Notes: generated by a model from the letters alone, not told the origin. Positions 7,261-38,824 are shown, numbered from the stretch's first letter. The stretch: DNA of 39,075 bases from a virus (IMGVR_UViG_3300016667_000286:1-39075), one strand, 5' to 3'. Numbers and translations are program-made.

Positions 7261-7603
7261 CCGGATCTCGAAACTCGCCAGCATCAGCCTGAACAAGCCG
7301 ATCTCGCGCTATGACGTGGCGATGATCCTGCATTGCGTGAAGCTGGGCAGGCTGCAAGACGCCCGCGCCAACCTCGACAATTATCTTGACGGGATCAACT
7401 ATCTGGCCTTTGCGGGCGAGTTCATTCGGTCTGAGGAAAGCGTGATCATCGCCGCCGAGAACGATGTCGCCGCCGCCTTCCGGGGAAACGTCGTCTCTGA
7501 AGCGGTGAAGACAAGCGAGATCGGCAAGGATGAACAGTCCAAGGTCGAGTTTACGCTGCCCAAGGTCGCCGTCCTGTCCGACGACAAGGTCAACATCATC
7601 TGA
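7169..7603 (+). CDS. DUF6378-like protein (dATP/dGTP diphosphohydrolase-related)
   Basis: IL..A...LKDREDQYG...FDRI...DVAMILHCVKLGR...DNYLDGINYLAFAGE pattern. Confidence 0.8.
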   Translation: MEMTHINILSNAQATLKDREDQYGPAGACFDRISKLASISLNKPISRYDVAMILHCVKLGRLQDARANLDNYLDGINYLAFAGEFIRSEESVIIAAENDVAAAFRGNVVSEAVKTSEIGKDEQSKVEFTLPKVAVLSDDKVNII

Positions 7604-7609
7604 GGATCG

Positions 7610-7631
7610 CGGGGGCTTCGGCCCCCGTTTT
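7610..7631 (+). terminator. Rho-independent terminator (cUUCGg loop)
   Basis: CGGGGGC-TTCG-GCCCCCG followed by TTTT, right after the stop codon. Confidence 0.75.
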
Positions 7632-7646
7632 CTGCTGGGGGGCAGA

Positions 7647-8165
7647 ATGACGCTTTCGGAACAGGTTGCCGCGCTATGGGCGCAGGACAAGACAAGCACG
7701 GAGATCGCGACGGCGCTTGGCATCAGCCGCAACTCGGTCATGGGCTTCGTACACCGGCTTCGGCGGGCCGGGCTGATCCAGATCCGCGAGAAGGACAAGG
7801 ATGCCGTCAGGAAGGCTCCTGATGGCCGCAAACGCGCTCCGAGGAAGGCCGCGAAGAAGGCCAAGCCCAAGGTCGAGCGCAAGCCCGGCCCGGCGCGCGG
7901 GCAGAGGGCGGCTAAGACGCGCCTGCCGCCCAAGCCGGTTGAGATGCTGCCGTGGACGCCCGCGAGCGGCACGAAGACCGTGCTGACGCTGCGCCTGATG
8001 GATTGCCGCTACATCGTCTCCGGGGCGGGCCTCGACGCCGTCTATTGCGGCCAGCCAAAGGAGCGGGGCTCATACTGCGCCGAGCATGGCGCACGGTGCT
8101 ACATCGCGCCAAAGCCGGGCCGCAGGCGTGAGCGCCCTCTCCGGCGTCAGGCCTCAAGAGCCTGA
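7647..8165 (+). CDS. gcrA: GcrA-family cell-cycle transcriptional regulator (sigma70 cofactor)
   Basis: N-terminal LWAQDKTSTEIATALGISRNSVMGFVHRL HTH, a basic linker, and the C-terminal TLRLMDCRYIV...YCG.P...GSYCAEH domain. Confidence 0.88.
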   Translation: MTLSEQVAALWAQDKTSTEIATALGISRNSVMGFVHRLRRAGLIQIREKDKDAVRKAPDGRKRAPRKAAKKAKPKVERKPGPARGQRAAKTRLPPKPVEMLPWTPASGTKTVLTLRLMDCRYIVSGAGLDAVYCGQPKERGSYCAEHGARCYIAPKPGRRRERPLRRQASRA

Positions 8166-10033
8166 TTGGCGCGCTTCAGAGCCTGCACGACGATCTCGTC
8201 CGGCTTTTCGAGGATCGACTGGGTTTTCTGGCCGATCCCCTTCTTGGCCCGCTCCGCCGCCATGATCAGGCGATCCGCCTCCACCTCGTGCGAGGAAATG
8301 CGACCGCCTGATTTGCGGCCACGGCGTTTTTCTTCATCCTGAATGATGGTCTGCTCTTTCGCCTGTTGAGCAAGCAAGTCTGCCATTGCAGGAGACTTCC
8401 CGTAAAGGCGAGCGGGTGCGCCGAGGACACGACCAGCCATGTAATTTGTGAAGCCGCCAACCTTCGGGCTTGAGAAAGCCAGTCCAGCGATTGCGCCGGG
8501 ATGAGCAGCAAGCGCGGGAAGGCCTGAAAACAGCATGTTCGACGCGATTGTTCCTGACACGTTGCCGCGCAGCCCCTGCGGCGTCCACGGATGCAGTTCA
8601 ACGCCAGCAATCGCGGCAGGAAGATCAGGATCAACCTCCGCAAGACGCTTGACCAGATCGCCCTTCGACTTCTTGTCTTGTTCGCGCAGGATCTTGCTGA
8701 TGCGATCTGTCGATGACCGACCTTTCGCCGTCATCGTTTTGCTCAGATCATTCAGTTCTTCCGTCGCCTTCTGATAGTTCTCCATGATCTCTGCATATTT
8801 CTTGTCAGGGATCGTGGCCTTTGCAGCCTCCGCAATTTGATCAACCATCCTGCGAATGTCACTGTTCGGAGGAAGATTGTGTTCGTAGGCGTAAGTACGA
8901 ATGTCTTTCTTCAACTGATCAAAATTGACCATTGTGTGAAGGTTTTTGGGTTCGTTCTTCCATTTGTTCACAAGATCATTGATGTCTTTGAAGACCAATA
9001 CCTTTTGAGACTTGTCGTTAAAGGTGAAGCCTTGCGGGTAGGCCATTTTGTACGCTTCTGCAAGAGCGTCATCGACCAGTTTGTAACTCAGCGTTTGCGG
9101 ATTTCGTCCTGACACAGCCGCCATGTCGCGGATGTAGTTGTCGCTACGCTGTTGCGCCACGTCCTTGATGGCCGTGTTGACGCGATTGATCAGATCCTGC
9201 GGCGGAACGCTTCCAGAATAATGCTCCCAGAACACCGGGTTTTTCTCAAACCCTGAGTTCAAAGCCTTCTGCAAGGACGTGCGCGAAACGCCGGATTGCA
9301 TTGAAATAGGATAGTTCGCCACAGACATGGCGGCTTTCGTCGCATATTTCGGAGCCTGAACAGCGAGGTTGATAGGATCAATCGCTTTTCCGACGCCCCC
9401 CGCAATCTGTCCCACCTTTCCAGCGACGCCGGGCAAGCGAGCGCCCAGAGCGCCGCCTCCGGTCAGGACCGTTGCAGCATCGCCAAGAACGCCGACAGGG
9501 CTTTCAGCCAAGGCCTCCTTGAAGCCTGACATAGACCCGTAGCGTTTCGCGTAGAAATCACCGACAGCGTCAGCCGCAGCCTCGTCCTTGGCCTTTTGCT
9601 CAGGGTCTTGCTCAAAGCCAAGTGCGCCCTTCGCCTTGGAGTACAGGCCGACACCAAGTTGCTTGGCTGACTGAAGGGTTTCAGACGGGTTCAAAAACGG
9701 ATGGATGATGGCCTGCGCCTCTTCCACCGCGCTTTTCGGGATGTTCCGCACTGCTTCTGAGGCGGTTTCTCCCCATGTGCGCTCCTTGATCGGAGCCTTT
9801 GGGTCAGCCGAGCGGATCGGTGGCCCCTGCGGCGGAGCGACCGGAGATGCGCTCTGCTGTTGGCTTGTCGCCTGCACTGGCGATTGTTTCAACGGCTGGC
9901 GCAGGCCGTCGAACAGGTCGTCGTCTGGAAGGCTAGACGGATCGAAAGCAGGCTTCTTTTGGCGCGGAGCAGATTGCTGCGCCTTGCCCGACTGTCGATT
10001 ATTCAGGCCATCAAAGAGATCGTCTTCTTCCAT
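8147..10033 (-). CDS. Putative internal virion / DNA ejection protein
   Basis: 628 aa with an acidic DDLFDGL repeat at the N-terminus and Gly/Ala-rich hydrophobic stretches. Last gene of the virion operon, the usual podoviral position for ejection proteins. Confidence 0.65.
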   Translation of the reverse strand: MEEDDLFDGLNNRQSGKAQQSAPRQKKPAFDPSSLPDDDLFDGLRQPLKQSPVQATSQQQSASPVAPPQGPPIRSADPKAPIKERTWGETASEAVRNIPKSAVEEAQAIIHPFLNPSETLQSAKQLGVGLYSKAKGALGFEQDPEQKAKDEAAADAVGDFYAKRYGSMSGFKEALAESPVGVLGDAATVLTGGGALGARLPGVAGKVGQIAGGVGKAIDPINLAVQAPKYATKAAMSVANYPISMQSGVSRTSLQKALNSGFEKNPVFWEHYSGSVPPQDLINRVNTAIKDVAQQRSDNYIRDMAAVSGRNPQTLSYKLVDDALAEAYKMAYPQGFTFNDKSQKVLVFKDINDLVNKWKNEPKNLHTMVNFDQLKKDIRTYAYEHNLPPNSDIRRMVDQIAEAAKATIPDKKYAEIMENYQKATEELNDLSKTMTAKGRSSTDRISKILREQDKKSKGDLVKRLAEVDPDLPAAIAGVELHPWTPQGLRGNVSGTIASNMLFSGLPALAAHPGAIAGLAFSSPKVGGFTNYMAGRVLGAPARLYGKSPAMADLLAQQAKEQTIIQDEEKRRGRKSGGRISSHEVEADRLIMAAERAKKGIGQKTQSILEKPDEIVVQALKRANQALEA

Positions 10034-10042
10034 GACCCTGCC

Positions 10043-13000
10043 TCACTGACCATCAAAAACAAAGTAGCGGTTTACATTCGGAACGTAGCGGATGCCGTCC
10101 CGCTGCGCCATTTTCTGGAGGAACGCCTCAATGATCTGAGGAGATTTTCCGCCATTGATCATCTTTTCGATCTCGACAGGATAGTTCCTGATGAGATGCT
10201 GGATGAACTTCTGCTCCGCCTCATAACGACCGCGCGTGTCATTGTCGAAAGCCTGACCGGCGCGAGCATAAGATCCGCCGGAGGCTTCACCATAAATATT
10301 CATATGGTTTCCACGGTCACGCGCCCGTTGGTTTTCGATCCACATCTGAGCGGCAATCTTGGCTTGCGTATCGGGCGGAAGATCAGGCGTCGCCATCGCG
10401 GTCATCATCATCTGAAACGCGCCAAGGTTATGTTGACCGGCGGAACTGGTGGCGCGACTGGCGAGATGCGTGTTGATCTTGTTCTGGTTCTTCACCAGCG
10501 TGTCGTAGTTGGCGAAATACTCTTCTGGAATGCCAAGCGCACGACCCAGCGTTTTGGCCCGGTTGAGCATGTCGGCGCGGAAGTCTGACGTTGCGCCCGC
10601 CGCACTGATGTTCTGACCGTTTACGATCTTTGACGTATTGATTGCCAGATCACCCATAAGCCCCTGCATGCCGGAAGCCGCATCACGCGCACCCGACACC
10701 GCTTCAGCATAATTCTGCGAAATGCGCTCGTTCGCGGCCTTGTTTGGACCCTTCACCAGATAGATGTCATCCTTTGCGAGGCGGCGGCTGTCCTTGCCGA
10801 AAATGCCACGCTCGGTCATTGCCGGATCGACCTTTGCGTCGATGATCTTGGGCATGTCTGCGTCATCAAGGCCAGCGCCCGTCGGAGGCTTCGCTCCAGT
10901 CTCAGACGTTCCGGGGATCTTGAATTGACCATTTGCATCAAGATAACCGGCCTGCGTAAGGAAGTGCTTGGCGGCGCTGTCCATCGTCGCGCCAGACAGG
11001 TTTGCGCCCGCAGGCAGAAGACCCTTCTTGATCGCCTCGACCGTGTAGATCATGCGGCCATCCGGCAAGCGAACCATGTCGCCAATGAAGGACAGGTTCG
11101 TCGCACGTTGCGCGGTTTCTGCCGTCTGCGCCTTGGTCAGGCCAACGTCAGCATTCTGCTTCTCATAGTCCGCATAGGCTTCAGCACCAGCGCCAAGGCC
11201 TTGCAGGATGGCCGAGCCAGCGTAACGGCTGGGAGACGACGCCATCGCGCCAAGGCCGCGCAGCACCGGAATGATGATGCCCTTGTTGTCGTCCCAGAAG
11301 CCCTTGACGCCGGAGGCGACGCCCTTGGCCTGATCCGAGAAGGAAGCGTTCTGCGCGCCCTGTGCAGGCTGATCGCCCTGCTGAACAAGCTGACCGCTCT
11401 GCGGAGCCACGCCACGAGACTTACCCAATGCCACCCATGTCGGAGCAAGCGCAGCCTTGATACGCGGCGAGAAGCCTTCCTCCTGAAGATCAGCGTCAAG
11501 ATCGCGCCCGGTGCGCCTCTTGTAATCCTGAACGCCAAGTTCCCACGTCGCTGCGTCCTGATAACCCTTTGTCATCGGAGCGCCGCCGGTGATGCGCTGC
11601 CATGTGTCGTAAATCATCTGAGGAGCGCCAGAGGCCGAAGACGTGCCGCCAAGGCCGGGCGTCTTACCGGGATGCGGGCCATTGATGTCGAACGTCTCCT
11701 TGCCGCCGTTGCGAATGTCGTAACGGCCACCGCTCTCGGGACCATAAATGCCCCTGATGAAGTCCTGCCGGTGCTGGGGCATGTCCTCAAGGTTCTGCGG
11801 CTGGATCTTGTACCGCTGTTCAGCTTCTTGCGCGTTCAGGGCGGGAAGATCAGCCTCCTCCACGGGAACAAGGCCAGCCGCCTCCACAGGAGCAACATCG
11901 CTTCCGTCCGCATAACCCATGCGGGGCGCAACACCGCCACCATAAGCGCGCTCGCGCGGAGCAAGGCCGGGAACGGCGTCTTCCGTGGCCCGGTCATAGT
12001 CGAGCGTCAGGAAACCGTCGCGGCTCTGGCCGACCGCCTCCGGCTTGCGGTTGAGAACCTCCTGCGCCATCAGGCCCATGCGCGTCGCGCCGTCACCGAA
12101 GTCATAGGCGTAAATATTCTGGCCGTCATAGGTCTTGCCGACAGGGCGGATGTTGTCCTTCAGACGAGCGTCAGAGACAAAAGGCAACATCGCCATCAGG
12201 GCGCTGAGGCCCGATCCAGCCGCCGAGGCAGCCCCCGGAGCCGCTGACGCGAGAGATGCAGCCGAAGAGGCCAGCCCAAGCGCATCCTTGATGTCAGATC
12301 CCGCCCCACGGCTTTGCCCCGGAGCCTGTCCGGGCTTCGCCAATTCGGCGTTCGTCTGATCTTCGGTTGCGTCTTCGATGTAAGCGCCGACACCCTTCGA
12401 CGGGTCTTGGATCTCCATCGGGTCGATGACCTTGCCGAGGCCCGCATAGCCCAGACGCGGAACAACGCCGCCCTGCTCAAATCCGAACGCCTCGCCAACG
12501 CCGCTGACAAAGCCCTTCGCCTTGTCGAGCCACCCCTGCTCGCCAGAGGACGCCGCAGGTGCGCTAGAAGCGGCGCTGGGCGGCGCAAGGCCAGCATTGG
12601 CGGTCTTGGCCGTGTCTGTCGGCGCTGGCGCTCCAGCGGCCACGCCAGAGGCCTCAGACGGCTTCTTGTCGGGAGAAAGGATGCCAGCCTTCTGGGCAAG
12701 TTTCCCGCCAATGCCTTCTTTGGTCAGAATGCCCTTCTCGCCAAAATACCTTTGCCCCGTCTTTTCTAACTGGTCGATGGTGTTGACGGTGTCTTTCAGG
12801 CGACTGTCTGGATTACGCGGCAATGCGCCTGCCGTCATCAGCTTGGGCGTATGCAGGCCAGCCTTGGGGACGTAGCTGCCGCCGCCCATCGGATTGTCAC
12901 CCGACTTGCCGCCGTAAAGGCCAACCTGACCGAACGGGCCAAAGGACGCCGCCTGCTGCTTTAAGAGCGCCTGCATGTCGTTCGGATCGACCAGACCGCC

Positions 13001-14965
13001 GGGAGCGTAGCCGCCACGAGCATAGTTGCCGGGCTCGTAAACTGCCCCGCCCATGCTGGCCGCGCCAAGTCCGGCCCGAGCAGCGTCTTCCGTCGCGCGG
13101 TCGTAATCGACCGTCTTGAAGCCCTGCGCGCGACCGACCGCGTCGGGATGATGCCGTTCGACTTCTTGCGCGATGAGGCCGATCTGAGTGCCCGGCTCAC
13201 CCTTGTAGTTGTAGCGGTAGATCGTCTGGCCGTCGAACGTCTCACCAACCGGGTGGATGTTCTCCTTGAGCCGCTCGTCCGAGAAGAACGAAGACGGCTG
13301 CGTCGTCGTCGTGGTCGAGCCAGAAAGAGCGCCGGTGCCCATCGCAATGTTTGCCAAGAACTGCGCGACTTGGAACGGATAGCCGCGCTCCTGCAAGAAC
13401 TGCTGGTAGTTCGCGGTGAGATCCGCCTGCCGTGTCTGCTGCTCCAGAGTTCCCGCCGCGATCTGAGCCTGAGCGCCCTGCAATGCAGCGTTCTGTGCGC
13501 CGGTGCCGAGCGCCGCCTGCTGCTGCGCCGTCTGAGCGCCGATGTCGTATCCCTGCCGAGCCAGCGCAGCCTGCTGCTGGGCGGTCGTCGCCCCCTGAGC
13601 AAACTGCTGCTGCCCGAGCCCCTGCTGGGCCTGTCCGTATTGATTGTAGAGGCCCTGCTGCGCCTGACCGATGGCCTGACGCTGCTGCGCCGCCGCAAGC
13701 TGCTGCTGATAGGCCGTTCCGCCCAAGCCAGACATAAGCTGCGCCTGCTGCGCGCCCTGCCCGTAAAACTGCTGCCCAGCGCCAAGAGCAGCCTGCCCGG
13801 CCCCGAGAGCCTGCTGGTATTGGCTCTGACCGAGTTGCGACAACAGGGCAGCGGTCTGGTTGTTCATGCCATACCGCTTCTCGCCGAGCGCCGCAGCCTG
13901 CTGCGCCTCGCCCATGCGCTGCGCGTAACCCTGCTGGCCGATCCCGAGAAGCTGCTGCGCCTGCTGCTGGCGAGCGGCGCGGTTGGCTTGCTCCGCCGAC
14001 AGGTTGACGCCCTGCTGCTGCTGGGCCGTCTGAAGAGCCTGCTGGTAGCCCCGTTCGTAGATCGGGGACATGGCCTGCGCCGTGGCGAGGTTCTGCTGGC
14101 GCGACAGAGCCGCCGCAGCCAGCCCGGCCCGGTCGCCGCCAAACGCGCCGGAACGGATCGCATTGCCAGTCTGGCCCGCCATTTCCTGCTGCTGCTGCTG
14201 GCGCAAGGCCTGATAGGTGCTATCCGCCACGCTCTTCGTGTACGGGTTCATGTACTGGGCGGTCTGAAGTTCTCCCGGAGAGACAGACTGACCGCCTTCC
14301 AGCGCCGACAGCGTGGCAGCATCCTGATAGGGCGAAGCAGCCTGCGTTGCGCCCATCGTCCCGCGCGTGGCGGCATCGTAATAAGGCTCGGCCATCGCCT
14401 GAGCGCCAGCAGCCTGCCGCATGGCGGCGGCATTGGCGGGCTGGGCACGGCCCTGCGCGCTCAGGATCTGGTTCTGGGCATATTCGTTCATGCCACGCGC
14501 CATGCCGGGAGCGGCCATTGCGCTCTCGGTCGCCGCAGCATTGTAGCCTTGAACGCCGCCAAGCCCGCGCGTAACGTCCTGCGAAGCCTGCTGATAATAG
14601 GGTGCAGCGGAAGTCAGAGCGGCGTTATAGCCCTGATCAGCCCGGCCAGCGTGGTATTGGCCCTGCTGCTGGCCCTGCGCCAAGGGCTGATAGGCCTGCT
14701 GCGTCTGCCCCATGCCCTGCTGGTAAGCGGCATTCTGCGTGTTTGACGCGGCGGCGTAGTAGGGCTGGGCCTGATTGGCGGCGGCGTTGGTGTTCGCCAT
14801 GCCCGCCTGCTGCTGCTGGGTCAGACCGGCGACAAACTCGCCGCCGTATCTCTGGAATGGTTGCTGGGCGACACTTTCTGCGCGAGCATTGACGGAATTG
14901 TATCGCGCCAGAACCTCCGGCGGGATTGAAACCGACTGCGTCGTCGTAGAGGATTTGCCGCCCAT
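10043..14965 (-). CDS. Large internal virion/ejection protein with two internal peptidase S74 domains and a lambda-lysozyme-like muramidase domain
   Basis: Gln/Ala-rich N-terminal 560 aa. SDERLKENI...IGLIAQEVE...VDY starts at aa 562 and SDARLKDNI...MGLMAQEV...LDY at aa 931. ESGGRYD...SSASGAPQMIYDTW...QDAATW...LAPTWVAL is the muramidase-like segment. Confidence 0.85.
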   Translation of the reverse strand: MGGKSSTTTQSVSIPPEVLARYNSVNARAESVAQQPFQRYGGEFVAGLTQQQQAGMANTNAAANQAQPYYAAASNTQNAAYQQGMGQTQQAYQPLAQGQQQGQYHAGRADQGYNAALTSAAPYYQQASQDVTRGLGGVQGYNAAATESAMAAPGMARGMNEYAQNQILSAQGRAQPANAAAMRQAAGAQAMAEPYYDAATRGTMGATQAASPYQDAATLSALEGGQSVSPGELQTAQYMNPYTKSVADSTYQALRQQQQQEMAGQTGNAIRSGAFGGDRAGLAAAALSRQQNLATAQAMSPIYERGYQQALQTAQQQQGVNLSAEQANRAARQQQAQQLLGIGQQGYAQRMGEAQQAAALGEKRYGMNNQTAALLSQLGQSQYQQALGAGQAALGAGQQFYGQGAQQAQLMSGLGGTAYQQQLAAAQQRQAIGQAQQGLYNQYGQAQQGLGQQQFAQGATTAQQQAALARQGYDIGAQTAQQQAALGTGAQNAALQGAQAQIAAGTLEQQTRQADLTANYQQFLQERGYPFQVAQFLANIAMGTGALSGSTTTTTQPSSFFSDERLKENIHPVGETFDGQTIYRYNYKGEPGTQIGLIAQEVERHHPDAVGRAQGFKTVDYDRATEDAARAGLGAASMGGAVYEPGNYARGGYAPGGLVDPNDMQALLKQQAASFGPFGQVGLYGGKSGDNPMGGGSYVPKAGLHTPKLMTAGALPRNPDSRLKDTVNTIDQLEKTGQRYFGEKGILTKEGIGGKLAQKAGILSPDKKPSEASGVAAGAPAPTDTAKTANAGLAPPSAASSAPAASSGEQGWLDKAKGFVSGVGEAFGFEQGGVVPRLGYAGLGKVIDPMEIQDPSKGVGAYIEDATEDQTNAELAKPGQAPGQSRGAGSDIKDALGLASSAASLASAAPGAASAAGSGLSALMAMLPFVSDARLKDNIRPVGKTYDGQNIYAYDFGDGATRMGLMAQEVLNRKPEAVGQSRDGFLTLDYDRATEDAVPGLAPRERAYGGGVAPRMGYADGSDVAPVEAAGLVPVEEADLPALNAQEAEQRYKIQPQNLEDMPQHRQDFIRGIYGPESGGRYDIRNGGKETFDINGPHPGKTPGLGGTSSASGAPQMIYDTWQRITGGAPMTKGYQDAATWELGVQDYKRRTGRDLDADLQEEGFSPRIKAALAPTWVALGKSRGVAPQSGQLVQQGDQPAQGAQNASFSDQAKGVASGVKGFWDDNKGIIIPVLRGLGAMASSPSRYAGSAILQGLGAGAEAYADYEKQNADVGLTKAQTAETAQRATNLSFIGDMVRLPDGRMIYTVEAIKKGLLPAGANLSGATMDSAAKHFLTQAGYLDANGQFKIPGTSETGAKPPTGAGLDDADMPKIIDAKVDPAMTERGIFGKDSRRLAKDDIYLVKGPNKAANERISQNYAEAVSGARDAASGMQGLMGDLAINTSKIVNGQNISAAGATSDFRADMLNRAKTLGRALGIPEEYFANYDTLVKNQNKINTHLASRATSSAGQHNLGAFQMMMTAMATPDLPPDTQAKIAAQMWIENQRARDRGNHMNIYGEASGGSYARAGQAFDNDTRGRYEAEQKFIQHLIRNYPVEIEKMINGGKSPQIIEAFLQKMAQRDGIRYVPNVNRYFVFDGQ

Positions 14966-14968
14966 TTC

Positions 14969-15460
14969 TTACTCCGCCGCGCGCCGGAAGTCTCCGGTCT
15001 TTGAATTGTAGAGGAAGAACGCCCCGGAGGGTTTTCCAAATTGCCGCTCGTAGAGGCGAACCTTCGCCTCCGTGCGATGGTTGGAAAGGACACCGATGAT
15101 CAACGGAATGCCCAGTTCATCCGCTACCTGTTTCGAGAACTCGACCAGACGACGCGCCCTTCCACCCTTGGCGCTCCGAAAGTCCGGGTGAATGAAGATT
15201 GCTTTCTCTTCAAGCACCTGCTGGTCAGAATACCACATATTGCCAATTCGCAGTAGCACCGCCCCTTCGGGCTTGCCGCGCTCGCCAATGATGCCGACAA
15301 TGCCCTGATTGACGGTCACGCCGTGCCAGATCTCGGCCAGCAGCCGCGCCGGGTTCGGCTCGACAAAGCCGTTTTCCTCGCAGGCTGACAGCGCCAGCGT
15401 CATCACATCGTCCACGTCTTCCGGCTCGGCGATGCGAACCTTCAGGTCTTCCTTTTCCAT
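14969..15460 (-). CDS. GNAT-fold acetyltransferase-like virion-assembly protein
   Basis: KVRIAEPEDVD N-terminus, IFIHPDFRSAKGGRARRLV acetyl-CoA-loop-like motif and RLYERQ. It lies just upstream of the ejection genes. Confidence 0.75.
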   Translation of the reverse strand: MEKEDLKVRIAEPEDVDDVMTLALSACEENGFVEPNPARLLAEIWHGVTVNQGIVGIIGERGKPEGAVLLRIGNMWYSDQQVLEEKAIFIHPDFRSAKGGRARRLVEFSKQVADELGIPLIIGVLSNHRTEAKVRLYERQFGKPSGAFFLYNSKTGDFRRAAE

Positions 15461-15480
15461 GCCAGCCCCCTTGGCTTTCA

Positions 15481-15509
15481 TTGCAGTCTATTTAGCGGTC
15501 TGGTATAAT
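15481..15509 (+). promoter_or_regulatory. Sigma70 promoter of the HNH-AP2 gene (leaderless)
   Basis: TTGCAG-N17-TATAAT with extended -10 (TGgTATAAT). The ATG is 7 nt downstream and there is no RBS. Confidence 0.7.
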
Positions 15510-15516
15510 CATTTTC

Positions 15517-16011
15517 ATGATTGACCAAACCACTCTCAAATCCGCCCTCTCCTATTGTCCCGAAACAGGGATCTTCACATGGGCTTCCGCAAGACCGCGC
15601 ATAATTGTCGGTGCAGTCGCCGGATATCTCAAGAAGAACAAGGGATACATTTACATCGAAATTGACGGACGATCCTACAGTGCGCACCGTCTTGCGTTTC
15701 TTTACATGACTGGAGAAATTCCATCCGGCCCGGTTGACCATATCAATCGCATCAAGTCCGACAACCGATTTTCCAACCTTCGCATCTCGTCCCACGGGCA
15801 AAACAGGGCAAATAGTCGGGCAAACAACAAACATGGTCTCAAAGGCATTAGCCGCCTTTCGTGGATGAAGGAGGGAGATCGTTGTTGGCAAGCGCAAATC
15901 ACCCACAACAAAAAGGTTAAATACCTTGGGTGCTTCCACACCAAGGAAGAAGCCCACGCCGCTTACGCTATTGCTGCACGAGAATTGCATGGGGAGTTTG
16001 CCAATCCTTAA
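15517..16011 (+). CDS. HNH-AP2 free-standing homing endonuclease
   Basis: [38 protein letters not shown], and AP2 domain WQAQI...[24 protein letters not shown]. Opposite strand to its neighbours and visibly more AT-rich. Confidence 0.92.
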
Positions 16012-16670
16012 TCTTTACGAGGCCCCGGAAGGGCCTTCAGCGTGTCCACGGTCTTCTTCCGCATCTTCTTCACGAAGGCGTCGAGGATCTGGTGGCCGCG
16101 ATCCATGTCGCCGCCGCCCAGATGTGTCACATCATCCGGCCCTATCACGAACTCGCCGCCCGCCGCCACGATGGGGACGGCATTGCCGGTGGAGCCGCCA
16201 GAGGCCTTGCCGGGCAGGCCAAGCTGCGCGTCCATGCCGGGTGCGCCTTCCGCGTCCGGGATGCCAAGACCCGGCTGACCGCCCATCTCAGGCGCTTTCG
16301 TGAAGATCGTGTTGGCGACCCGGAAACCGGCCATCGTGTTCCCCTCGCCCATTGCCGAGATGATGTCGGCGGGGATGACATACGACCCGGATGCGACATG
16401 CATCGGCAAATGGTCGGTGCGGCCCGCCACCGGGCTGTGGATCGGCCCGGAATGGATTTTCTCCACGTCGCCATACTGGCTCGGCTTTGCGACCGGATCG
16501 GCGTCGCGCTTGGTGCCCGGCTCGTACATCATTTCGCCGCCCCCGGCCTTCACCGAGCGCGCCGTCTTCAGGGCGATGGCGATGGCCTGATCCTGCGGAT
16601 GCCCGGAATGCCGCAATTCACGGATGTTCCGGCTGACAGTCTTTTGCGAAGAACCTTGCTTCAGAGGCAT
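16008..16670 (-). CDS. Putative virion protein with duplicated 'GEFVI'-type module
   Basis: [19 protein letters not shown]...QAIAIAL N-terminus, then [22 protein letters not shown] and [17 protein letters not shown]. Confidence 0.7.
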
Positions 16671-26092: not shown

Positions 26093-28786
<2,694 letters not shown>

Positions 28787-32757: not shown

Positions 32758-33264
32758 TCAAACTCCTTGAGTTGTGGGACCGGAAACGTGTTTCCACGTT
32801 TCTCCAGTCTTTGCTCTGCGGATGGCGATAATGCCGACACCGTATTTGTCAGCCAGCGCCTTGTTGCTTTCGGACGATGCGCGAATGGCATCGACCATTT
32901 CACACGTCAGCTTCCGCCGACCATGACGACCGCGAGAAACGGTATCCTGAATGTTTTGAGCCTGCGTTCCCGGCTCAAGATGAGCCGGATTTACGCATGA
33001 TGGATTGTCACACGAGTGGCGAATAACCAGTCCATGAGGAATAGGTCCGCGCCAAAGTTCATATGAAAGACGATGAACACGAAGCCTTTCTCGGTTTCGC
33101 ATCATCACCCCGTAGCCGTAGGAAACGGCACCTTTCCACTCCCAACACCCAGATAATGACACGACGCTCTTATTCATGATGGTCATACGCAGAAGATCGT
33201 CATCCGAAACCTGTCGGAACTCGATATACGGCGAAGCCACCATGAGAACGTCGCGCTTCGTCAT
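32758..33264 (-). CDS. HNH free-standing homing endonuclease
   Basis: CWEWKG...GYG...VHRLSYEL..GPIP.GLVIRHSCDNPSCVNPAHLEPGTQAQNIQD plus a C-terminal HTH. More AT-rich than its neighbours. Confidence 0.9.
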   Translation of the reverse strand: MTKRDVLMVASPYIEFRQVSDDDLLRMTIMNKSVVSLSGCWEWKGAVSYGYGVMMRNRERLRVHRLSYELWRGPIPHGLVIRHSCDNPSCVNPAHLEPGTQAQNIQDTVSRGRHGRRKLTCEMVDAIRASSESNKALADKYGVGIIAIRRAKTGETWKHVSGPTTQGV

Positions 33265-33266
33265 TG

Positions 33267-33851
33267 TCAGATGCCGGTCTGGTTCTTGGTCACGACGTTG
33301 TTGAACGCCACGACGACCCAGTTGTAAGCACCCGCTTCCGTGCCGGGAGCGCCGGGCGGGAAGGAGACGAGGCTCACAATGCGGAAGGGAAGCGTCGCCG
33401 TGGTCGGGCCAACGCCGGTGATGTACGCGCCGGAGATGCCGGTGTTGGCATTGCCGGTGCCGATGGCGTAGCCGACCGTCGCGTTCACGTCGGTCTGGGC
33501 GATGCCGGTGCTGTCCGACTGGACCAGCCACTTGGCGTTCGGGTCGTTGACGATGTAGCCCTCGACGACATTGGTCGAGGCGACATCGGAGCCGGGCCAG
33601 TAGTTGGACCAGACCGTGCGCTTCTGCGACACCGAGAGGTACTTGCAGCCGACGAAGATGCCAGCAATGCCCGCAGCAGCGGTCGTGCCGTCACCCTGAG
33701 CGACCGTGCCGTCAGCCGTAGGCTCAACGGGATCGCCGAAATAAATGGCCGAAGCATTGTAAGCGATCTGAACCGGGATCTGCTCGTAGGTCGGAGCCGA
33801 ACCCGTGCCGCTGTACTGACGGAAACCGAAAGGCGCGTTCGTATTCGCCAT
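33267..33851 (-). CDS. Head-associated (decoration/stabilising-like) protein
   Basis: MANTNAPFGFR, IYFGDPV, GIFVGCKY and GNANTGISG. Typical gene upstream of this capsid type. Confidence 0.75.
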   Translation of the reverse strand: MANTNAPFGFRQYSGTGSAPTYEQIPVQIAYNASAIYFGDPVEPTADGTVAQGDGTTAAAGIAGIFVGCKYLSVSQKRTVWSNYWPGSDVASTNVVEGYIVNDPNAKWLVQSDSTGIAQTDVNATVGYAIGTGNANTGISGAYITGVGPTTATLPFRIVSLVSFPPGAPGTEAGAYNWVVVAFNNVVTKNQTGI

Positions 33852-33966
33852 GACGGAACTCCCTGTGACAGGAGGTTCGTCATCGCACACCGGGGCGACT
33901 AGAACCGGGGGTTGTTACGCCTCCACGCCGGGGGAGGCAGCAGGCCCACGCGGGGCCTTGGCGACA

Positions 33967-33995
33967 AAATTACCTGACCCACGGAACAATGTAAA
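33967..33995 (-). promoter_or_regulatory. Sigma70-like promoter for the capsid operon
   Basis: Minus strand TTTACA-N17-TAATTT, about 115 nt upstream of the start codon at 33851. Confidence 0.65.
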
Positions 33996-34019
33996 GGAAC
34001 AATTCTGTGGACAGGGCGC

Positions 34020-34380
34020 ACCTCCGCCTCCGCTACCCCTCCCCTCCCCGAAGGAAGGAGAACGCGGTCTGAGGGCCACCTCTCTCGACGCACGGTATAT
34101 CAGCGGTGCCCTGCCTTCCGGCTCTCGGGGGGCCTCTCCGCTCCCCTGCCCGGCAGAACCGGGACTAGTGGGGGGTTTAGGCCGCTGATGCTCCCTCGCC
34201 CGGTGGGGCTTCGGGACGGTCGGAGCCGGGAAAATCCCGTGAGTGCCCGCCGCGCGTTTTGTCAGGGATTGGTAGACGCCCTGCCGTCGCGGTCTGGGAT
34301 AGGCTCCCCACCGGAAGATGGCCCGAGAACTGCGGTCAGACGCTCAATCGGCATGGCCGGGCATCATCGTGCATTTTCGG
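34020..34380 (-). ncRNA. Candidate multi-branched structured RNA
   Basis: Long-range stems 34200-34208/34306-34314 and 34099-34106/34182-34189 with nested hairpins. A cUUCGg hairpin at 34041-34060 has G-U pairs only on the minus strand. No credible ORF. Confidence 0.5.
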
Positions 34381-34401
34381 GCAACGCTGGCAGGGATGAC
34401 A

Positions 34402-34430
34402 TTGACTGAAAAAATCGAAACCGATAAAGT
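34402..34430 (+). promoter_or_regulatory. Promoter of antisense small RNA
   Basis: TTGACT-N17-TAAAGT. Confidence 0.65.
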
Positions 34431-34436
34431 CAATGT

Positions 34437-34510
34437 CGTTCGGTGATGCCTGCCAGCGTCACCTTTGTTCTCTGGCCCTCGGCGCGCAAACGCCGGGGGC
34501 CTTTCCTTTT
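34437..34510 (+). ncRNA. Candidate ~75-nt antisense small RNA
   Basis: Promoter, then hairpin GGTGATGC-CTGCCA-GCGTCACC, then terminator GGCCCTCGGCG-CGCAAA-CGCCGGGGGCC-TTTCCTTTT. G-U pairs favour the plus strand. Confidence 0.6.
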
Positions 34511-34659
34511 GTATGTCGATTTTGGCTGGGTCGGCAAGATGGCCGGGAACAAAATTGCGTTCCGCGAAATGAAACCCTCAATCAAACCCGATCAAATGTC
34601 GCCGCTGGGAACAGTCAAGCGATCTTGTTCTCACCCACCCCTTGGCGGAAACCCACCTA

Positions 34660-34748
34660 CTCCTCCCCTGTCTCCTCCCTACCTCCTCCCTATCTCCTCC
34701 CAACCTCCTCCCAACCTCCTTCCCACATCCTTCCCACATCCTTCCCAC
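34660..34748. repeat. Eight tandem ~11-bp pyrimidine-rich repeats
   Basis: CTCCTCCCCTGT, CTCCTCCCTAC, CTCCTCCCTAT, CTCCTCCCAAC x2, CTCCTTCCCAC, ATCCTTCCCAC x2. Confidence 0.92.
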
Positions 34749-34788
34749 CCCTCAAAAGGTAACAATCGCGCCGTTTTGTTACCTTTCG

Positions 34789-34935
34789 CCGCAACGGCGG
34801 AAACCCGTTCACAGATAACGCGCCCAGCGGGCATGGCAGATACTTAAATCGTTTTGAGCAACCATTGAAATTGTTCATCTTTTTTTCGTAACGGCAAAAA
34901 CCCGTTAACAGGCCGCCCGCAACGGCGGAAACCCG
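34789..34935. repeat. 19-bp direct repeat CCGCAACGGCGGAAACCCG with degenerate copies
   Basis: Exact copies at 34789-34807 and 34917-34935. Partial copies at 34887-34904 and 34644-34654. Confidence 0.88.
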
Positions 34936-34942
34936 GCAACAG

Positions 34943-34973
34943 AAAAGGCCGCCCCGGTTTCCCGAGACGGCCC
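34943..34973 (-). terminator. Rho-independent terminator ending the scaffold operon
   Basis: Minus strand GGCCGTCTCGG-GAAA-CCGGGGCGGCC followed by TTTTCT. Confidence 0.8.
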
Positions 34974-34999
34974 CTGTCAGCCCCAAATTGCGACCCAAC

Positions 35000-35632
35000 T
35001 CACTCTTCAGGGACAGGCAACGCTTCCCAGCCCTTGTTGATCTTGGGCCGAACCGACGCATGATCGCGCGTCATCGTGCCTTCCGGCGTTCCCGACAACT
35101 GCGCTTCCTTGGCCCGGACCTGATCGCGCGCGGCCTTGTCACGCAGGCGACGAGCCTGATCGACCACCTCAGCCGGGCGCTCCATCAGGATCAGCCCCTT
35201 GCGCTCAATGGTGCCTTTCGACCAGCCCGGCGGCATCATGTGCGGATGACGCGAGGCCGGGACCGGCTCCCAGCCCATGCGGAGCAACTGCACCGTGTAG
35301 GTCGGATCTTCCGCACCCAGCAGCGTCAGGCGCTTCCACTCGTAGGTCCAGCCCTCCGGGATGTCGGCGCGGTCGATGTAGAAGTCGTCCGTGCCTTCGT
35401 CCATGTCGCCGATATGGCCCATGATCTCGGCGGCGCGGCGCTTGGCGCGCTCCATCGAACTTTCTTCACGCATTTCGGCGCGCATCGTGGAGCGAGGAAC
35501 CGAGCCAGAGGGTTCCAGCGCCTCGGTGTCGGTGTTCATGGATGCGGGCGGCATATCGTCGTCCATGCTGTCCATCGTCTTGATCCGGCGGCCACGACGG
35601 CCCGGCGCTGCATCGTTGAAAATATCAGACAT
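35000..35632 (-). CDS. Conserved head-module protein
   Basis: IPEGWTYEWKR, GWEPVPASRHP and IERKGLILMERP. Lies downstream of the scaffold gene and has a GAGGAG RBS. Confidence 0.8.
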   Translation of the reverse strand: MSDIFNDAAPGRRGRRIKTMDSMDDDMPPASMNTDTEALEPSGSVPRSTMRAEMREESSMERAKRRAAEIMGHIGDMDEGTDDFYIDRADIPEGWTYEWKRLTLLGAEDPTYTVQLLRMGWEPVPASRHPHMMPPGWSKGTIERKGLILMERPAEVVDQARRLRDKAARDQVRAKEAQLSGTPEGTMTRDHASVRPKINKGWEALPVPEE

Positions 35633-36538: not shown

Positions 36539-36931
36539 TCACCAGACCTGATCAGGGTTCTTCACGCGGCCACGGATCTGCGTGTCGTTCAGGATGCGGC
36601 ACAGCACCCCGTGAACCGTGATCTGCCAGCCATCGGACGGACGGAACACCAGCCACTCGCGCAAATTGAAGGTTTCGCCGTTGAACCAGCCTTCGGCGTT
36701 CGGCTCAAAGGCGCTCGGACCCTTCTTCAGCAGCAATCCGACCTTCGACTGGTAACGATCCTCGTCCGTCGTCTGGTCGGTGAGATAAATGCCGCTCTTC
36801 GTCTTCTTCGGGCGGATGTAAACGCCGACGAGAACCTGATTGTTGAAAAGTTCGACGCTGGAAAGATCACCGATTTCCTTGATCATCGTGTCGGCAGGAT
36901 CAATCTCATGCTCCATCACCATGTACGGCAT
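36539..36931 (-). CDS. GroES-like co-chaperonin
   Basis: VLVGVYIRPKKTKSGIYL, VGLLLKKGPSAF and CRILNDTQI fit the Cpn10 pattern. Confidence 0.8.
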   Translation of the reverse strand: MPYMVMEHEIDPADTMIKEIGDLSSVELFNNQVLVGVYIRPKKTKSGIYLTDQTTDEDRYQSKVGLLLKKGPSAFEPNAEGWFNGETFNLREWLVFRPSDGWQITVHGVLCRILNDTQIRGRVKNPDQVW

Positions 36932-37249: not shown

Positions 37250-38824
37250 TCAGGACTTGCGCTTGGCGATGTCCGTCTTCTGAAGACGACCCTCACCAGA
37301 ACCCGCGCCTGCGGTCATGTCCTTGTAAGACTTCGCCACCTTGCTCACGCGGCCACCAGACTTGCGCGGCATGGGCGGGCCACCGGCGGGCGGGCCGGGA
37401 GGCATCGGAGGCATTCCGCCGGGCGGCATGGGCGGCATTCCACCCGGAGGCATCGGCGGCATGCCCTGCGGCGGCGGAACCGGAACAGGAATGCCCGCAG
37501 GACCAGCGTCCGGCGGCGGCAACGGCAGCGGACCGCCCATCGGGGGAGCTTTGTCAGCGCCCGTGTTGATGTTGATCGTGACGTTTGTCTTGCCCTTCTT
37601 GACTTTGCCGCCGTCCTTGCGCGCGGTGCGGCCCTTGAGCATCTTCTGGATCATCGCGGCTTCGCGCGAACCAATTTTCTGGCGCGAAGAACGGATCGCC
37701 TTGCCAACCGCCTCTTCGTCATAATCCGGCTCAGACACGTTGGCTGCGCGGCTTGTGCGCTTGCCGGAGCCAGCGCCCTGCTTCGGCATGTCATCCATGT
37801 CGAGATCGCCGCCATAAGCCCGGCCAGCGCGACCGGTGTTCTTCTTCGGAGCCATCTCCTTGATCATCTTTTTGATCAGGGCGCGGTCCTGAGCCTCATC
37901 CTCATGCTTGATCTTGCCGCCCTTCTTGGCGCGGGTCTTGCCCATCGCGCTGGCCGGGCTGAGAGCGCCAGCCGCCGTGCGAACCGTTTCAGCGCCATAC
38001 AGACCGCCGGGAACGCCTGCGCGCTTGCCCGCCTTGTCCATCATCTTGGCCGCACCCGCGACGCCCGGCCCCATCGCCGAGAGGTCGCCGCCGTCAGCTT
38101 TCTTGGTGCGACCGCCCGATTTGCGAGGATTGTTGCGAATAATGTCAGCCAACTTGGCCTTGTCTTCGTCGCTGATCCTTGGAGCGCGATCCGCATAGGT
38201 TTCATCGCGGCTGCTGGCCGGAGGGCCATACAGTTTTTCACGAATACGATCTCCTGCGCCGCGAGCATTAAAGACGTTTCCGCCATTTTCGCGTTTGGCG
38301 CGACCGCCCTTCTTCATGCCGGAGTTTGACTGAGAATATTGCTGCTGACCCAAGGCGCTCATGCGCGCATTGTCGCCGCTGTCATTTTTTGAATATTGCT
38401 GCTGGCCCAAAGCCTGATTGGCTTGATTGCCCATTGCAGCGGCCTGATCCTCGCTGATGCCCCTCTGCTCGCCGCCGCCAGCCTTCTTAGCCCGGCCACC
38501 AGACTTCATGCCACCGATATGCTTCTTGCCCTCGCGCTCTTCATTCGCGGACTTCGCATTGCGGTTGACGATTTCATTGCCAATGCGGCCACCCGATTTG
38601 CGCGCCTTGCGATCCGCGCGAGCGGGGGCCTTGTTGCCTTCGACTTTGCCGCCCTTCTTGAAGGCGCGCTTCGTCAGCGGGCGCATGCCCGTCTTGACGC
38701 CTGCGTCGAGATCCTCGGCGGGCGTGAACGTGGAGGCGTCAACCTTTCCGGCTGCGCTGTTGGCTCCAAGGCGCTGGGCCTTGGACTTCATGGCCGCACG
38801 GGCCTTTTTGGACAGTTCCGACAT
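37250..38824 (-). CDS. Basic low-complexity protein with 12 xxxGG motifs and a Pro-rich tail
   Basis: AGGAG RBS, repeated KKGG/KSGG/KDGG/AYGG motifs and GGMPPMPP repeats. Confidence 0.8.
   Translation of the reverse strand: MSELSKKARAAMKSKAQRLGANSAAGKVDASTFTPAEDLDAGVKTGMRPLTKRAFKKGGKVEGNKAPARADRKARKSGGRIGNEIVNRNAKSANEEREGKKHIGGMKSGGRAKKAGGGEQRGISEDQAAAMGNQANQALGQQQYSKNDSGDNARMSALGQQQYSQSNSGMKKGGRAKRENGGNVFNARGAGDRIREKLYGPPASSRDETYADRAPRISDEDKAKLADIIRNNPRKSGGRTKKADGGDLSAMGPGVAGAAKMMDKAGKRAGVPGGLYGAETVRTAAGALSPASAMGKTRAKKGGKIKHEDEAQDRALIKKMIKEMAPKKNTGRAGRAYGGDLDMDDMPKQGAGSGKRTSRAANVSEPDYDEEAVGKAIRSSRQKIGSREAAMIQKMLKGRTARKDGGKVKKGKTNVTININTGADKAPPMGGPLPLPPPDAGPAGIPVPVPPPQGMPPMPPGGMPPMPPGGMPPMPPGPPAGGPPMPRKSGGRVSKVAKSYKDMTAGAGSGEGRLQKTDIAKRKS

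Follow-up and report, generated by a model that had tools for sequence, protein, structure and literature searches.

Two shortened, internal peptidase S74 units in a putative ejection-protein precursor of an uncultured podovirus

Peptidase S74 is generally treated as an obligate trimeric chaperone of phage fibres, and the ejection proteins of T7, P22, SU10 and crAss001 are separate gene products. Polyproteins are known from African swine fever virus (pp220 and pp62) and as core precursors of adenovirus, where they are cut at Gly-Gly by a separate cysteine protease. Described S74 domains cut once they are folded and oligomerised (PMC8326128, PMC10769870), and cleavage takes place upon expression (PMC10769870). 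In MyRF, a C-terminal coiled coil drives trimerisation, on which cleavage depends, and a single mutation in the coil is enough to abolish cutting (PMC8326128). A search of the open-access literature turned up neither a description of S74 in ejection proteins nor one of a phage ejection polyprotein.

The window analyzed here, meaning the whole stretch of 39,075 nucleotides, derives from a short-tailed phage with an SU10-type adaptor and a major capsid protein 42% identical to that of pelagiphage HTVC023P. An open frame on its minus strand (10043-14965) encodes 1640 aa without interruption, and a first-pass annotation had described the product as containing two S74 units and a lysozyme-like domain, which proved accurate on re-analysis. 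The protein matches PHROG 4287, "DNA ejection protein" (E 2.8e-19), and the regions matched by PHROG 4287 and PHROG 6121 end in unit 1 and unit 2, respectively, each at the C-terminal end of the profile. The precursor and its neighbours are laid out as follows.

14969..15481, minus strand: GNAT-family gene directly upstream of the precursor, the usual neighbour of the first ejection gene
10043..14965, minus strand: putative precursor of internal (ejection) proteins, 1640 aa, 172 kDa (open frame; PHROG 4287, PHROG 6121)
13283..14965, minus strand: piece 1, aa 1-561, 58.6 kDa, Gln/Ala/Gly-rich first ejection protein, predicted last residue Phe561 (profile matches)
13082..13282, minus strand: mini-S74 unit 1, aa 562-628, Ser562/Lys567 dyad, without coiled coil
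12995..13057, minus strand: xGG motif array behind unit 1, aa 637-657 (conservation and enrichment)
12176..12994, minus strand: middle piece, aa 658-930, low-complexity
11975..12175, minus strand: mini-S74 unit 2, aa 931-997, Ser931/Lys936 dyad, optional in the family
11900..11950, minus strand: xGG motif array behind unit 2, aa 1006-1022
11417..11788, minus strand: lambda-type lysozyme domain, aa ~1060-1183, with Glu1077 (profile match)
10046..11323, minus strand: C-terminal all-helical region, aa 1215-1640 (model pLDDT 78)
8147..10033, minus strand: gene for the following internal protein (628 aa), a homologue of Caulobacter phage RW gp63 (profile E 1e-87)

The GNAT gene adjoins the precursor in 75 of the 76 loci that have one, and the 628-aa internal protein carries a single xGG motif close to its end. 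Elsewhere in the window we observed a GcrA-like regulator (7530-8165, plus strand, E 8e-13), which hints at an alphaproteobacterial host, a GroES-like gene (36539-36931, minus strand), and an HNH endonuclease frame (32758-33531, minus strand) that lies just before the major capsid gene and overlaps the end of the 33267-33890 gene. About 1.1 kb amid the head genes (33890-35000) holds no convincing coding-strand gene.

Scanning with the Pfam Peptidase_S74 profile (PF13884), as the first-pass annotation had proposed, matched the protein in two stretches (E 2.3e-17; 63.5 bits, against a curated cut-off of 22). Unit 1 opens with SDERLK at aa 562 (nt 13282) and unit 2 with SDARLK at aa 931 (nt 12175), as first placed, and the nine-residue end shared by both units, DYDRATEDA, begins at aa 620 in unit 1 and at aa 989 in unit 2; the ends of the units had been drawn too short and extend to ~nt 13082 and ~nt 11975. 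Both units carry the Ser and Lys of the dyad in the arrangement SDxxxK (Ser562/Lys567 and Ser931/Lys936), again as annotated, are 62% identical to each other, and share the core G-(L/I)-x-A-Q-E with classical S74. A Thr-rich, strand-like run lies ahead of unit 1 and a hydrophobic Gly/Ala-rich segment ahead of unit 2.

Conservation of Ser and Lys among homologues had been named beforehand as a test of the annotation, and the dyad came through it almost without exception. Ser, Asp and Lys are retained in all 205 units of the top 120 homologues (201 found by pattern and four read from printed lines), and in 250 of 251 units of 131 further representatives, where the exception is cut at the protein start; Ser and Lys are kept in 455/456 units of the combined sets, which consist of related sequences, the counts not being independent events. 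The Ser is encoded by all four TCN codons (112 units) and is preceded by Phe in 159 of 201 units. Tyr585 and Tyr587 of unit 1 align with Tyr615 and Tyr617 of MyRF, the aromatic pair that MyRF needs (alignment E 0.059). A divergent type of site-1 unit, which has an extra loop and no final Tyr motif, was seen in P0014, P0035, P0111, P0119 and P0216; the Ser is present in 5/5 and the Lys in P0014, P0035, P0111 and P0119.

Homologues of the precursor make up a large family among uncultured HTVC023P-like podoviruses. We obtained 1405 homologous matches of 902-2870 aa among 7991 scored candidates, and the unit profile recovered 618 clusters at 50% identity (E up to 1e-30). The survey of unit number suggested earlier gave zero to two internal units per protein: in the top 120 of the 1405 homologues, 86 have two, 33 have one and one has none, and none of the best 150 representatives has three (138 have two and 12 have one). 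Because 86 of the best 120 homologues share the two-unit layout, this layout is neither chance nor misassembly. Where a single unit is kept it is the first in 63/65 proteins. The unit sits within a long frame in 80/80 viral loci, some frames being cut by contig ends; in L025 and L065 the break in the long frame lies away from the unit. Close relatives with a split version were considered and rejected, as the 120 listed of 288 shorter matches mostly resemble truncated or frameshifted pieces. The fused form occurs in one uncultured record of the phage collection, and a search for a cultured host or prophage found none, yielding six loci, all MAG contigs. Site 1 and site 2 units form mostly separate lineages (nine label changes on the tree vs 66 shuffled), and on this ground, together with the 62% identity, we rejected the idea that unit 2 of the present genome is a recent copy of unit 1; several other lineages have re-copied the unit within the gene (84-87% identity).

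A canonical S74 in the same window provides an internal control for the shortened form. It begins at aa 801 of the collagen fibre (26093-28783) and continues into a long amphipathic C-terminal helix.

26096..26383, minus strand: C-terminal S74 of the collagen fibre in its canonical form, coiled coil included (PF13884, E 8.8e-9)

In hhalign the fibre S74 and the mini-units match at 95% (E 2.9e-8). Set against the fibre copy, the internal units are without the C-terminal coiled coil, as the first-pass annotation had seen, and without the collar (first trimer) helix as well: the mini-S74 comprises 67 aa, with only ~11 helical residues (~three turns) past the Tyr, followed by Gly/Pro-rich sequence, and in the model a beta-hairpin replaces the collar helix. 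The model of unit 1 has a mean pLDDT of 64 (core 72-81), and the 20 residues before Ser562, the only upstream residues included, are unordered (pLDDT under 50). Foldseek gave the MyRF ICA 7dc3 as best match (prob 0.98, E 0.11), with none at E <=0.001, and VIA-align placed four solved ICA domains at ranks 1-4 among 48,161 chains (Z 4.1, 4.0, 3.7 and 3.1, next 2.4; rmsd 2.9-9.0 over 60-75 aligned residues). As modelled, unit 1 has the ICA core fold, the structural scores being low and the rank clear.

Self-association of the unit is likewise predicted. A three-copy model scored 0.55 vs 0.23 for the best of three controls, with runs agreeing in at least 47% of contacts and pLDDT at least 73; the mark for self-association is reached by 20/30 solved pairs and 1/23 single chains, counts that hold roughly for three copies with their own alignment, and the score over this mark may reflect likeness to solved ICA trimers. 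The structure prediction of trimers called for earlier thus gave a score above the controls, with confident contacts listed for two copies only. These two are joined symmetrically with the Ser-Lys segment outside the contacts, and the canonical trimer is not reproduced. On the contact list, the unit could possibly be a two-fold dimer with cleavage in cis. Two short proteins, P0357 and P0360, contain two mini-S74 units close together; those of P0357 directly follow one another at the C-terminus, an arrangement that would suit two-fold pairing.

In cultured relatives, piece 1 is a separate gene (HTVC023P gp81, MinM2 gp23, CRP-901 gp33 and RW gp65), and no S74 was detected in these stand-alone genes. 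The piece 1 profile matches HTVC023P gp81 (E 2.5e-13 and 5.4e-10) and piece 1 matches Salmonella 7-11 gp20 (E 4.7e-7), while the comparison with P22 gp7 is not significant (E 0.12). A second group of cultured phages carries a mini-unit on ejection proteins: it is C-terminal, with 3-18 residues past the last Tyr motif, in 6/7 proteins examined (five of them first ejection genes by position or annotation) and in two more, always behind a hydrophobic Gly-rich segment. The carriers include Sulfitobacter pCB2047, Rhizobium RHph_N2, Bradyrhizobium ppBeUSDA76-2, Salmonella 7-11 (gp20), Proteus Privateer (gp18, unit at Ser328) and Vibrio 199E37-1. Privateer gp18, whose unit is C-terminal, is homologous to 7-11 gp20, and its record annotates verification by MS in virions. 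The statement that S74 normally occurs once, at the C-terminus of trimeric fibres, from which the first-pass annotation had set out, is incomplete, as database records already contain the shortened unit on these ejection proteins. When gp7 of Vibrio 199E37-1 (unit at Ser203) is aligned with the unit-less gp7 of Aeromonas 4_4512 (206 aa), the stop of the latter falls at the predicted scissile bond, a match seen in one pair of low-complexity sequence whose end alignment is not clean once P22 gp7 is added. P22 gp7 itself closes with a segment of this kind, hydrophobic and rich in Gly, whose last residue is Phe. Because of this coincidence of stop and scissile bond and the P22 gp7-type end, we read the unit as a device for making a C-terminus. 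On this reading, annotation of mini-unit genes as 'tail fiber domain-containing protein' would be wrong.

The junction at which the unit stands is conserved whether or not the unit is present. Where unit 2 is missing, the hydrophobic segment leads directly into an xGG motif in 30/31 single-unit proteins (shuffled mean 1.3, maximum 4), and this junction is also retained in 57/63 proteins of a larger, partly redundant set; P0023, P0027 and P0041 retain the junction without a unit at site 1. By sequence comparison, the junction is fixed and the unit inserted there is optional. Gly639 and Gly640 are conserved in 93-94% of 201 aligned units. Among the 86 two-unit proteins, xGG occurs 143 times in the 50 aa behind unit 1 (17 shuffled) and 91 times behind unit 2 (8 shuffled), compared with 118 vs 53 in the middle piece, 58 vs 68 in piece 3 and 10 vs 65 in piece 1, where the depletion may also reflect the repeat structure. 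In the 1640-aa protein alone the motif is not enriched (4 vs 3.0, p 0.37); its middle piece has an extra xGG motif at aa 829-833 and a hydrophobic Gly/Ala-rich end before Ser931. The arrays are candidate sites for a second protease, or a candidate binding signal, and their persistence without the unit hints at a second, trans-acting cut. No protease gene for xGG was identified in the window.

The motif also concerns several further proteins. A basic 524-aa protein (37250-38824, minus strand) contains 12 xGG motifs, a number reached in 0/300 shuffles (mean 1.75), and is a candidate internal head protein with the same signal as the ejection precursor. The product of 16008-16667 (minus strand) has a duplicated small domain that lies behind xGG motifs; homologues occur in 74 of the fetched loci and include MinM2 gp22 and RW gp66, and among named Atlas clusters crassvirus cargo protein 1 lies closest (cosine 0.77), which is a lead only. 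In lambda, the tape-measure protein gpH (L090:143-2704) has two [FY]ATGG motifs past a hydrophobic Gly-rich stretch, near its cleavage site. A link between the xGG-associated domain and gpH was dropped, the profile match not being significant (E 0.26).

Behind the second unit, a six-sequence profile of aa ~1060-1183 matched phage lambda lysozyme (1am7/3d3d, E 1.5e-4), confirming the lambda-lysozyme-like domain of the first-pass annotation although Pfam and a single-sequence search gave no match; single-sequence PDB searches with the unit and with the lysozyme domain were also negative. Glu1077 is invariant in 6/6 rows of the profile and, from its position, would be the catalytic residue. The hydrolase slot is interchangeable among homologues, being occupied by PF01464 (SLT), PF07486 (Hydrolase_2), PF05838 (GH108) or PF00959 (phage lysozyme), with a lambda-type lysozyme in 22/120. 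The model of the C-terminal region (aa 1215-1640) had no solved-structure match above background. Profiles detected no significant homology between piece 3 and the stand-alone second ejection genes HTVC023P gp82 and RW gp64, of which piece 3 would be the counterpart by gene order.

Based on these findings, we propose that the gene encodes a precursor of podovirus ejection proteins that would enter the virion, and we consider it likely that, as the virion is assembled, each unit cuts just ahead of its own Ser and so leaves the preceding piece with a free hydrophobic C-terminus, in effect a stop codon at the protein level. The predicted cuts, Phe561/Ser562 and Val930/Ser931, would fall in virion assembly and give primary products of aa 1-561 (59 kDa), 562-930 (37 kDa) and 931-1640 (76 kDa), the preceding piece thereby gaining the kind of free end with which gp7-type ejection genes terminate by stop codon. 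Cleavage would therefore yield one copy of each piece per precursor; the packaged set may differ. A putative second protease, acting at the xGG arrays, could then detach the spent units of ~9 kDa from the next piece, a step for which the chances appear slightly short of even. A consideration against the predicted cleavage comes by analogy, the units being without coiled coil and collar helix while MyRF needs its coiled coil.

With this scheme in hand, the earlier interpretation can be revised. Its predicted cut sites (561/562 and 930/931), the internal position and the S74 identity of the units are supported by the sequence analysis. The unit would belong functionally to the piece before it, because it is C-terminal in cultured phages, and the xGG arrays suggest that it is trimmed off the next one. 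The claim that one precursor gives three ejection proteins lacks support in that form: homologues vary between zero and two units, the precursor's slot holds two genes, not three, in HTVC023P and Caulobacter phage RW, and no stand-alone counterpart of the middle piece was found among split relatives (CRP-901 gp36 looked alike by eye and was unsupported by a profile over 711 ORFs). Nor is there support for S74 timing the release of the cell-wall hydrolase, described S74 domains cutting once folded and oligomerised (PMC8326128, PMC10769870).

The absence of the trimer helices, which MyRF requires for cleavage, could also mean that the units do not cut at all and are small oligomerisation or docking modules, with processing only at xGG by a head protease. 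The predicted self-association agrees with such a role, and so does the persistence of the junction and xGG arrays without the unit, which makes the unit dispensable at either site. Binding would not obviously need both Ser and Lys, yet both are kept in 455/456 units while their neighbours vary, and the unit is placed exactly where a homologue has its stop codon; we regard non-cutting modules as unlikely. Should the units act as classical intramolecular chaperones instead, each would trimerise, fold a short triple-beta stalk ahead of it and leave, the cut being a by-product of folding control. Fold and dyad are of the ICA type, a Thr-rich, strand-like run precedes unit 1 and three copies passed the complex test, but the coiled coil is missing, unit 2 is preceded by a hydrophobic, Gly/Ala-rich stretch and not by a beta-helix repeat, the model shows no order in the 20 residues ahead of Ser562, and unit-less homologues evidently fold without it, which together leave this account rather improbable.

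Least probable, by a small step, is that the precursor is packaged whole and cut only at infection, releasing the lysozyme-bearing piece in the periplasm. Many homologues do have a cell-wall hydrolase behind the last unit, and activation could have become conditional once the trimer helices were lost. On the other side, the unit retained in single-unit proteins is nearly always the first and not the hydrolase-adjacent one, the cultured-phage unit ends the protein with no hydrolase behind it, and described S74 domains cut on expression (PMC10769870). The cutting of each unit before its own Ser during assembly is thus the reading we retain. More tentatively, and with the odds somewhat against it, this reading may be extended to a trimer-independent mini-S74 of 67 residues that serves as a portable autoprotease in place of a stop codon and let phages fuse ejection genes; maturation would then proceed in two steps, self-cuts that free hydrophobic C-termini and subsequent removal of the units at xGG by a putative head protease acting also on other internal proteins.

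If cleavage takes place as proposed, polyprotein processing would be part of DNA delivery in tailed phages and S74 would cleave without a coiled coil. A portable mini-S74 would further imply a polyprotein strategy for the phage ejectosome and a new two-fold or cis-acting Ser-Lys chaperone-protease. For cultured phages the prediction is that gp7-type proteins need a free hydrophobic C-terminus, on which the unit is a removable cap, and a self-removing tag of 67 aa leaving an exact C-terminus could serve as a laboratory tool.

Compared with described systems, the mini-units share the SDxxxK dyad, the G-(L/I)-x-A-Q-E core and the fold rank with the PF13884 domains of K1F endosialidase (3GW6), the T5 L-shaped fibre (4UW8) and Bdellovibrio MAT fibres. 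They differ from those of tailspikes and fibres in being internal, at most two per chain and without coiled coil or collar helix, and their host is an ejection protein, whereas PF13884 hosts are trimeric beta-helix fibres. The MYRF ICA (7DC3), the best structural match with the aligned aromatic pair, is likewise an internal S74 that releases an N-terminal product, but it occurs as one copy with a four-heptad coiled coil needed for cleavage (PMC8326128), a helix that the mini-units do not have. HTVC023P-like and P22 (gp7/gp20/gp16) ejection sets follow the same order of upstream gene, first ejection gene and further internal genes, and differ in consisting of separate genes with no S74. In ASFV and adenovirus one precursor gives several core proteins, with GG motifs at the junctions, much as the precursor described here would; their polyproteins are not known to have a built-in Ser-Lys autoprotease. 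The gp7-type ejection proteins (PHROG 4287 and 6121), a set known from database annotations and for which we found no account of cleavage in the open-access literature where a C-terminal mini-S74 is present, have the same shortened unit behind a hydrophobic Gly-rich segment and a comparable genomic position; in them the protein stops with the unit, while in the 1640-aa precursor the frame reads on. What is new is thus a known S74 domain in shortened form, in a new role within a widespread family of putative ejection precursors.
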